NCBI GenBank assembly: GCA_951406725.2
Contig: OX597825.1
Span: 2,046,001-2,110,000 of the forward strand
Reading direction: 5' to 3'
Length of the DNA stretch: 64,000 bases
Source: Octopus vulgaris
Lineage: Eukaryota
The position numbers and the translations under genes were made by a program. The notes beneath the pieces were generated by a model. The model saw only the letters and a program-made list of their open reading frames with translations. It was not told the DNA's origin and searched no databases. Of this stretch, positions 6,661-63,310 are shown piece after piece. Every line of letters begins with the position of its first letter. Position 1 is the stretch's first letter.

Positions 6661-6720
<60 letters not shown>

Positions 6721-6789
6721 GTTTTTTTAAATACAAATAAATGAAAGAATGGAGTTGAACGACGAATTAACAAATTTCCTTTATTTTAT

Positions 6790-6870
6790 TTTGGACATAT
6801 GTTTCGAAGGCTGCATATTCCTAATTTCGAAGGAATAAGGGGTGTATTATGCCGCCTTCTCATCAGGAAA
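6790..6870 (-). ncRNA. Hammerhead ribozyme type I, inverted copy
   Basis: TTTC-CTGATGA-GAAGGC...GCCTTC-GAAAC-ATAT-GTC-CAAA. The first stem I pair is mismatched. Confidence 0.75.
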
Positions 6871-7122
6871 AGTAAGGAACTTATGTCAGCATGAAGATGC
6901 ACAAAAACTTTTAGATGACTGCCCACAAAAAAACACACAAAATTCCACACGATAGCACGTGATCTCTGCCCTAGGCAGGTAGCTTCAACCGTGTTTTTCT
7001 GACGTGAATTTGCTACCCAGGTATCGGTTAACCGAATTATTCATAATAAGATAATTCATTCAACTACTCAATTATTCATATACAGTCTCCTTGAGATCCT
7101 GCTACCTTAACCGATACCGCAA

Positions 7123-7280
7123 ATGGAGTTGTTCGACACTAACGCATCCCATAAGGACATACCTATATCACCAAAAGAAACCTTCCTTAAGGAAATTGTT
7201 AACAAAACAAATGCATTTATCAACCGCATTAGATGGCTCGCCTTCTTCCACGATGATGAGGACATAAAACGAAAGAAACA
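7123..7280 (+). pseudogene. Truncated N-terminus of a Penelope-like element ORF
   Basis: SHKDIPISPKETFLKEIVNKTNAFINRIRWLAFF resembles the SxKNIPIP...FIxRMRWKAFF start of PLE RT/GIY-YIG proteins (recognised from memory). No RT domain follows. Confidence 0.7.
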
Positions 7281-7359
7281 CTCATTATCGCTATGGGCTC
7301 CGTATGGGCAGTCATCTAAAAGTTTTTGTGCATCTTGATGCTGACATAAGTTCCTTACT

Positions 7360-7440
7360 TTTCCTGATGAGGAGGCGGCATAATGCACCCCTTATTCCTT
7401 CGAAATTAGGAATATGCAGCCTTCGAAACATATGTCGAAA
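7360..7440 (+). ncRNA. Hammerhead ribozyme type I with extended stem II, canonical core
   Basis: Stem I TTTC(7360-63)/GAAA(7437-40); CTGATGA 7364-70; stem II GGAGGC/GCCTTC extended by GCATA/TATGC; GAAAC-ATAT-GTC with palindromic stem III. Predicted cleavage after 7436. Confidence 0.85.
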
Positions 7441-7661
7441 TTAAATAAAGGTATTTTGTTAATTCGTCGTTCAACTCCATTCTTTCATTTATTTGTATTT
7501 AAAAAAAACACACAAATTTCCACACGATAGCACGTGATCTCTGCCTTAGGCATGTAGCTTCAACCGTGTTTTTCTGACGTGAATTTGCTACCCAGGTATC
7601 GGTTAACCGAATTATCCATAATAAGATAATTCATTCAACTACTCAATTATATATATATATA

Positions 7662-62259: not shown

Positions 62260-62466
62260 CTCTTTAACTTGTTTCAGACATTTGACAGTGGCCATGCTGG
62301 AGGACCACCATTTGTCGACCAAATCGACCGCAGGAATTATTCTTTGTAAGCCTGGTATTTATTCTATTGGTGCTTTTTGCCGAACCACTAAGTTACGGGA
62401 ACCTAAACGAACCAGCATCGGTTGTCAAGCGATGTTGGGGGACAAACACTGACACAAACACACACG

Positions 62467-62470
<4 letters not shown>
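62260..62470 (+). mobile_element. SINE family C
   Basis: cttgtttcagacatttgacagtggccatgctggag...gccgaaccactaagttacggg...catcggttgtcaagcgatgttggggg. Confidence 0.85.
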
Positions 62471-62517
<47 letters not shown>

Positions 62518-62521
<4 letters not shown>

Positions 62522-63138
62522 TGACGCATATTTGCCATTTGAATATGGCTAACCCCTAAGGGTGGATGCTACTGTAGTTTGTAGCCCCAGGAAGATATCT
62601 CCTCCAGCTGGCTATAGACACACTATCTGTGCCCTATCAGTATTTGTGAAGGGAAGTCATCCTTCCCGTCTGGGGCTACAAACTACAGTAGCATCCACCC
62701 TTAAGGGTTAGCCATATTCAAATGGCAAATATGCGTCACGTTGTGTTACCGCTGCTGTTTATAACTCACTCTGAGATTTATCATTGTTTGATTTCACTTT
62801 TTCAATATCAGTGTCAATCGACACTGGAAAAAGTATATGTATTTGTGAGGGAAACTGAATTCTCGTCGACAACTATGATTATCACACGCTGATGATAGGT
62901 AAATACCTTGAAACTCGAGTCCGTGTGTATCATAAGTTGAAGACGGGAAGGATGACTTCCCTTCACAAATACTGATAGGCCACAGATAGTGTGTCTATAG
63001 CCAGCTGGAGGAGATATCTTCCTGGGGCTACAAACTACGGTGGCATCCACCCTTAGGGGTTAGCCATATTCAAATAGCAAATATGCGTCACGATGTGTTA
63101 CCGCTACTGTTTATAACTCGCTCTGAGATTTATCATTA
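62518..63138 (+). mobile_element. Retrozyme-like HHR element: inverted segment plus ~1.33 units of a 352-bp repeat, in (TA)n
   Basis: 62518-62671 is the reverse complement of 62941-63094. 62671-62786 repeats at 63023-63138. One HHR, no credible ORF. Confidence 0.9.
62870..62939 (+). ncRNA. Hammerhead ribozyme type I with long stem I
   Basis: CACACG(62883-88)-CTGATGA-T-AGGT-aaat-ACCT-T-GAAAC-TCGA-GTC-CGTGTG(62922-27). Stem I extends by TATGAT/ATCATA and CAAC/GTTG. Predicted cleavage after 62921. Confidence 0.9.
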
Positions 63139-63159
63139 TATGTATATATATATATATAT

Positions 63160-63310
63160 AATGGCGTCTTTCAGTTACTGTCTACCAATTCACTGATAAG
63201 ATCTTGAGGAAGCCTAGGATGACGCTTGCCCAAGGTATCACGCAGTAGGAATGAAACTGGTACAACATAATTGAGTAGCGCGTTTCTCTACCACGCAACC
63301 ACTTCCGAGT
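63160..63310 (-). mobile_element. SINE family B, decayed
   Basis: gtctttcagtt.ctgtctaccaa...cttgcccaagg..cacgcagtagga...taccacgcaaccact. Confidence 0.65.

Follow-up and report, generated by a model that had tools for sequence, protein, structure and literature searches.

A hammerhead-bearing non-coding repeat family in the octopus genome with the insertion anatomy of Penelope-like retrotransposons

The 64-kb window analysed here (the whole 64,000-nucleotide stretch of Octopus vulgaris DNA) contains at 62518-63138 one copy of a repeat family whose members, this copy included, are likely to be non-LTR retrozymes, carried as non-autonomous passengers by Penelope-like retrotransposons (PLEs). As judged from sequence, the family seems to work like a non-autonomous PLE, and it shows every feature of animal non-LTR retrozymes that sequence can test. 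The class is already known, and the octopus family appears to be a new animal member of it. A preliminary description of the locus, made from the letters only, had put it forward as a retrozyme candidate, and the comparisons below support that reading. Three marks of Penelope-like integration escaped it, namely the inverted arm, the tail of 44 nt and the (TA)n target.

Anatomy of the insertion and its hammerhead motif

The insertion is approximately 620 bases long, is flanked on both sides by (TA)n, and is composed of two arms (Table 1). A repeat search shows 62670-62785 repeated directly at 63022-63137 (94% over 116 nt), and 62518-62671 to be the reverse complement of 62941-63094 (97.4% over 154 nt), such that the head-to-tail part contains 1.33 copies of a 352-nt unit and is joined to a 154-nt inverted arm with a 2 bp overlap at 62670-62671. 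Unit positions (u) are counted from window position 62670 (u1), which places the predicted ribozyme cut between u252 and u253 (62921/62922); a ribozyme-defined monomer would be a circular permutation of 62670-63021 starting at 62922. The shorter of the two end sites falls in the loop of the third hairpin of a predicted four-way junction. Other abundant short repeats, which recur in the flanks of many loci, surround the element at window positions 62260-62450 and 63160-63260.

Table 1. Features of the insertion and its flanks, in window coordinates.
Feature	Position	Strand	Basis
(TA)n tract, left half of target microsatellite	62470..62519	.	sequence
Inverted arm, u272 to u73; 3' end at short fixed site (u73); without ribozyme core	62518..62671	-	repeats, end mapping
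Direct arm, 469 nt (1.33 units); 3' end at long fixed site (u117)	62670..63138	+	repeats, end mapping
Single 352-nt period, non-coding unit	62670..63021	+	repeats, fold
Predicted four-way junction, closing stem and three hairpins	62684..62759, again 63036-63111	+	predicted folds, present copy and young monomer
CAGTGTC hairpin, in predicted stem u126-166	62809..62826	+	sequence, fold
Type I hammerhead motif with extended stem I	62862..62947	+	sequence, fold, covariation
Private G>A in stem I internal loop (G in 44/45 cores)	62881	+	core comparison
Palindromic stem III ACUCGAGU	62913..62920	+	sequence
Predicted self-cleavage site, after GUC, with the insertion's 3' end 217 nt downstream	62921..62922	+	hammerhead consensus position
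Second unit copy, partial (positions 1-117)	63022..63138	+	repeats
44-nt 'tail' between both fixed end sites; present in the direct arm, absent from the inverted arm	63095..63138	+	end mapping
(TA)n tract, right half of target	63139..63160	.	sequence

The non-coding character of the unit and its 352-nt period agree with the preliminary description, the longest stop-free frame in a natural dimer being 66 codons. The unit lacks an ORF with reverse transcriptase (RT) and GIY-YIG domains and is thus not an autonomous Penelope-like element. In the 64-kb window the repeat search found no family copy besides 62518-63138, and tblastn with five PLE proteins gave no match. The unit had been described as highly structured, and it folds with a z of -6.2 relative to shuffled sequences as a linear molecule, and at -113.2 kcal/mol (z -7.9, 40 shuffles) as a circle. 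Two further hairpins had been proposed, of which the CAGTGTC hairpin is part of the predicted fold, whereas GGGAAG/CTTCCC (62945-62961) is present as sequence but its bases pair into the long ribozyme-carrying rod. The insertion had also been called young, which is true only in part: 7 of 116 bases differ between its direct repeats, whereas identical copies occur in a sister subfamily, and the locus is an ordinary, slightly decayed, middle-aged family copy.

The hammerhead has the type I organization originally reported for it. Stem I has 6 bp (62883-62888/62922-62927) and continues past an internal loop (62875-62879/62929-62933 and beyond); it is followed by a CUGAUGA core (62889-62895), a U-U at 62896/62909, a short stem II of 4 bp (62897-62908), GAAA (62910-62913) and the palindromic stem III, with the predicted cut after C62921. 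A hammerhead regular expression applied to both strands of the window returned two matches, of which this is the only convincing one; the expression missed a second, longer motif near 7350. Rfam gave no match at gathering score over the window, and the ribozyme call therefore rests on motif, fold and covariation. The ribozyme region folds better than shuffled sequences (z -3.4), and its helices have 92% paired cells over 19 aligned rows compared with 18-51% in slid controls, with two-sided changes at six pairs. Eleven of these rows were picked via a CCCGGG-palindrome pattern, which predetermines how often C-G is counted at that pair.

All 19 rows have complementary bases at the inner pair of the stem III palindrome, although this pair cannot close a 2-nt loop in a monomer, and older subfamilies retain the palindrome through a two-sided change. 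Retention of the palindrome would be compatible with a dimeric ribozyme, and represents one or two events rather than many, because the old rows were chosen by palindrome.

The U-U at the base of stem II, for which a copy-specific mutation or a family variant had been considered, turns out to be a subfamily trait, position 62896 being U in 27, A in 17 and G in one of 45 cores. Thirteen of the 45 have a CCGAUGA core. A canonical core with G-C closing stem II is identical in 24 of 44 cores of the motif-picked sample (defined below), which, as with arrays of identical units, may be a sign that the family is still moving. Older subfamilies have non-canonical cores (CCGAUGA, and U-U or C-A at the stem II base), and C-A, U-A or C-U is found at this position in the older-subfamily loci L093-L104. 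Among the subfamilies sampled, the canonical G-C is confined to the youngest, which may therefore have regained it. In one array (L266) G-U replaces G-C at the stem II base in all five monomers, and a template with a weakened core thus still yielded a six-unit array.

A large repeat family with two fixed 3' ends

The direct arm as query recovers 3287 candidates in the 2.8-Gb genome, the ribozyme core of the present copy's subfamily group has 323 exact matches, and a 28-nt motif near the 3' end has 1771 (control, 0); these are motif or candidate matches and not insertion counts. The repeat family numbers well over a thousand copies, and the locus is not single-copy, as the retrozyme reading anticipated. 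Units are 352-353 nt in length, and older subfamilies, 70-86% identical, share this length and the same ends. Members of the present copy's group have a mean pairwise identity of 94% and a private divergence of ~1.8%. A younger 353-nt subfamily, which matches the present copy at 317 of 353 positions, has many identical members. Family units carry the type I hammerhead, and arrays elsewhere in the genome contain at least two complete ribozymes, the present locus having only one. Most arrays are shorter than 2 units and some reach ~6, with the longest arms at ~6.4 units among the best 40 of 2644 candidates.

Insertion anatomy was mapped in two samples, each taken in genome order from the first listed places. 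The ribozyme-picked sample contains 82 insertions from contigs C1-C5, with seven duplicate loci dropped. The motif-picked sample contains 58 insertions from contig C1, leaving out ten duplicate loci, L175 and L188 (which repeat L174 and L181), places in the ribozyme-picked sample, and one further place. Within each of the pairs L174/L175 and L181/L188, arm lengths and junctions agree although the two insertions lie at different places on C1, and the pairs are probably segmental duplicates or DNA-level copies.

Outer 3' ends lie at u73 or u115-125 in 116 of 131 cases in the ribozyme-picked sample and in 87 of 91 in the motif-picked sample, with exact positions at u73 (103 ends), u117 (64) and u119 (29). 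There are thus two fixed internal sites (u73 and u117-119) 44-46 nt apart, and both fall in predicted hairpin loops. Two-armed insertions, comprising a partial tandem and an inverted 5'-truncated arm, account for 48/82 and 33/58 of the samples, and the arms use one site each in 37/48 and 30/33, or 67 of 81 in total. A single insertion uses the same site twice (67 versus 1, p 5e-19), and the other 13 have one or two irregular ends. In the motif-picked sample, 65 of 87 fixed ends run into TA-alternating sequence (background, 4-5%), and TA is also present 5' of the insertion in 18 of 51 one-armed insertions. Inner junctions (n=102) have overlaps of 1-6 nt (49), are blunt (8) or gapped (31), or have larger overlaps (14). 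The use of two fixed sites, one per arm, corresponds to the 'tail' signature of Penelope-like elements. Because the ends lie at two fixed internal sites within TA microsatellites, a Penelope-type enzyme likely pastes the repeat, and integration of this type is well supported and very probably correct for the family as a whole.

Penelope-like protein similarity is present in the flanks of 9 of 216 family loci examined. In the eight of these that were read the coding piece is separate from the unit, in the ninth (L005) it is ~1.2 kb away, and no ORF-joined copy was found among the 216. The unit therefore amounts to more than the pLTR of a coding element, the alternative raised at the outset. Of two further leads, one was a single locus and the other led to older subfamilies rather than to an ORF. 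Assembled contigs of four runs, of unverified kind and guessed to be RNA, cover 30 of 30 element bins and almost none of the neighbouring stretch, which with thousands of copies is no evidence of expression; assembled contigs also reveal neither RNA ends nor circles, and tandem copies in the genome would give junction reads like those of a circle.

GIY-YIG PLEs are abundant in the genome, with 148 of 150 scored candidates (out of 6136) matching the PF01541 profile. No coding PLE resembling the unit in sequence was found among 30 GIY-YIG loci and 20 longer PLE loci, which cover few of the genome's families. Two coding families, represented by L235 and L236, have matches to both RT and GIY-YIG domains, the RT scores being just under the Pfam cut-off. 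The first (L235:1945-4287) has a 781-codon (781-aa) open frame with many open copies, ends in (TA)n, and has a 3' region rich in CCAAT/TGACGTC repeats; the hammerhead regular expression found no match in L235, L243, L244 or L245. The second (L236:1795-4983; L239; L077:1592-2749; L080:3-1330) is a young coding PLE with (TA)n ends and the same insertion anatomy as the retrozyme family: L236 has a 100% identical inverted arm, a ~26-30-nt tail and a hammerhead. The hammerhead of this family has a CCGAAGA core and an AGUACU palindrome, and the C at core position 4 in L236 is found likewise in 13 of 45 retrozyme-family cores. In L077 and L080 a copy of each family occupies one TA tract, which is shared targeting and not proof of partnership. 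Unit matches in L236 and L245 were considered as helper termini and rejected, as their positions (and in L236 the sequence read) show them to be separate insertions.

Other hammerhead-like sequences were noted. A further two-armed insertion in (TA)n, unrelated to the first, occupies window 6720-7650; it has inverted arms at 6785-6925 and 7305-7445 (96%), contains a hammerhead-like motif with a long stem II (~7345-7400), and has a short open frame from ~7123 that may be the start of a Penelope-like ORF. L035 contains a different hammerhead-like repeat, which has CCGACGA as its core and 7 nt inserted in stem III and is also present, twice inverted, in L252.

Template and mechanism

The insertions end 173 and 217 nt downstream of the predicted cut site, and priming is thus internal. 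In the motif-picked sample 43 of 91 arms cross this site (37 once and six twice), 5 of 91 start within the 15 nt around it (u246-260) with no pile-up, and 207 of 208 crossings have no indel or scar, although this rate is no higher than in neighbouring conserved windows and shows only the absence of scars. Variants are informative as to the template. Diagnostic sites differ in 53 of 789 comparisons between tandem passes, in 82 of 1382 between opposite arms, and in 43% between insertions, and near-private variants are shared in 9 of 126 cases by tandem passes, in 15 of 241 by opposite arms, and in 22 of 14002 by other insertions of the same subfamily. All five full monomers of array L266 have three variants in common, two of them CpG-to-TpG, and another single variant is common to all five monomers of L258; the CpG decays of L266 would first have arisen in a genomic source copy. 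That units and arms of one insertion have variants in common points to repeated copying of one monomer, for which a circular template is the explanation that we favour as reasonably likely; gene conversion could account for part of the sharing.

Arms derived from two different RNA molecules were considered and rejected for most insertions by haplotype and variant sharing. L012, L158 and L160 may be exceptions, their opposite arms differing at 7/28, 5/28 and 5/13 diagnostic sites, respectively. Mixed array L263 has three monomers with different variants, and in all four loci template switching between two RNA molecules is possible.

In the mechanism that we consider likely, a tandem locus would be transcribed, and hammerheads, probably acting as dimers via the palindromic stem III, would excise a monomer that a host ligase circularises. 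The Penelope RT/GIY-YIG protein of a coding element, probably also a dimer, would nick both (TA)n strands, and each 3' end would prime internally on the same RNA, one at the u73 hairpin loop and the other at the u115-120 loop. Each RT would then copy backwards around the template for a variable distance, giving arms from partial to six units, and the two cDNA ends would be joined, often via 1-6 nt of microhomology. A more far-reaching reading, to which we give about an even chance, is of a still-moving family in which a Penelope RT dimer primes both nicked TA strands at two loops of one ribozyme-made RNA circle, rolling around it up to six times. If so, the genome would record a step of the retrozyme model so far only proposed, and the enzyme would be using the 353-nt circle as a minimal natural substrate, recognised through its fold and not through sequence similarity to the helper.

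The same Penelope-type integration could act on an uncleaved linear read-through of a tandem array, with the ribozyme incidental and no circle formed, which we consider rather unlikely. Arrays of ~6 units exist and could act as masters, L263 is mixed, weak-core copies have spread too, and an Anolis PLE uses uncleaved RNA in vitro, with ribozyme mutants inserting equally well (PMC11167929), such that cleavage may be dispensable. Against this, 5' truncation only shortens arrays, and the longest arms found stop at the ~6.4 units given above. The young arrays L258, L261, L265 and L266 each carry their own signature in every unit, including CpG decays, and every array would need its own homogeneous linear master; compensatory changes in the ribozyme helices are also seen across subfamilies 70-90% identical. 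A ribozyme-cleaved linear monomer, on which the RT jumps from the 5' to the 3' end of the same molecule, would give the same tandem product and accounts for the within-insertion variants equally well as the circle. Template jumps usually leave extra or missing bases, as seen in R2 work, and the near-absence of indels at crossings and the lack of an arm-start pile-up at the cut site make jumping very unlikely.

Arrays and within-insertion similarity might also have arisen after insertion by unequal crossing-over and gene conversion, i.e. minisatellite growth. Inverted and tandem repeats are prone to conversion, but the youngest copies include the long arrays, and 8 of the 9 loci examined retain fixed ends and TA flanks. 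Near-private changes in older insertions are mostly unshared (117/126 between tandem passes, 226/241 between opposite arms), so conversion is not erasing differences, and although such growth is proposed for vertebrate retrozymes in the Discussion of bioRxiv 10.64898/2026.07.22.740005, its chance here is slim. Slimmer still is the chance that the unit represents no more than the pLTR of some coding PLE, its copies being truncated ends or rare internally deleted by-products. PLE pLTRs do carry type I hammerheads, 5' truncation is common, and the helper was not found among the PLE loci compared, so its pLTR could resemble the unit. However, 21 of 91 arms in the motif-picked sample exceed 352 nt, and arms beyond one unit continue into another unit and never an ORF, in arrays of up to ~6 units. 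To this are added the short open frames of the natural dimer, the lack of ORF-joined copies among the loci examined, and the several subfamilies that share one unit length, at 70% identity up to identical copies.

Relationship to animal retrozymes and Penelope-like elements

How animal retrozymes return into DNA is still a proposal in the Discussion of PMC7229834, where repeated copying of a circle as the template is put forward without a genomic test (Cervera and de la Pena), and the mechanism is called unresolved in the portion of bioRxiv 10.64898/2026.07.22.740005 cited here. Whether PLEs need their own hammerhead is likewise open (PMC11167929), and the octopus family joins both questions, as it shows PLE integration marks, with strict one-site-per-arm priming, on an ORF-less ribozyme repeat whose variant sharing points to one monomer copied several times. 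A literature search with most subscription journals outside its reach returned no paper on the family or on variant sharing as evidence of a circular template. Since one genome contains both a young subfamily with canonical cores and PLEs with intact ORFs, this is a small and directly testable system.

In the parts of Cervera and de la Pena 2020 (PMC7229834) used here, animal non-LTR retrozymes include 350-390-bp mussel elements and axolotl Rtz353 with its hammerhead HHR_Amex2. The octopus family has in common with them a non-coding tandem unit of 150-450 bp with a GC content below 50%, one type I hammerhead per unit, thousands of copies and a stable predicted circle (PMC7229834). In HHR_Amex2, as in the octopus unit, helix III consists of 2 bp and a tetraloop, and a U-U mismatch lies at the helix II base; in the same source cleavage of HHR_Amex2 is 22% as a monomer and much more as a dimer; one of nine Xenopus retrozyme dimers cleaved in vitro according to the cited portion of bioRxiv 10.64898/2026.07.22.740005. 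The retrozymes of PMC7229834 are observed as circular RNAs, whereas the octopus family is known from genomic sequence, and its arrays are short (mostly <2 units, up to ~6), unlike theirs. The sections of that paper considered here report larger target site duplications, where present, and make no mention of inverted arms, of a tail or of a pair of fixed end sites. The viroid-like character suggested early on, in the sense of autonomous RNA replication, finds no support, as the copies are dispersed genomic DNA and the both-strand search detects the motif in a single polarity.

Li, Clavereau and Pollet (2026, bioRxiv 10.64898/2026.07.22.740005) argue, in the part drawn on here, that animal retrozymes derive from PLEs, and the octopus family leads to the same conclusion as to origin, with a similar co-occurrence of coding PLEs. 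The evidence differs, as theirs is co-occurrence and pLTR similarity in vertebrates, whereas in octopus it is PLE-type anatomy, with no pLTR similarity found in the loci compared. PLEs form partial tandems in which one copy is inverted and truncated and one end bears a tail of 30-40 bp (Craig et al. 2021, PMC8557442, in part), and the tail corresponds to the stretch between two internal RT start sites, both DNA strands being cut and extended (Frangieh et al. 2024, PMC11167929). In the passages of these two papers relied on here, endonuclease-bearing PLEs share with the octopus family, in what is a close correspondence, the partial tandems, the inverted 5'-truncated arm, the one-end tail, the AT-rich or (TA)n targets, and two internal RT start sites situated in stem loops downstream of the hammerhead. 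The octopus unit differs in having no ORF, a tail of 44-46 nt rather than 30-40 (PMC8557442), and a hammerhead with a full stem II and an extended stem I, PLE hammerheads being minimal as portrayed there (PMC8557442, PMC11167929).
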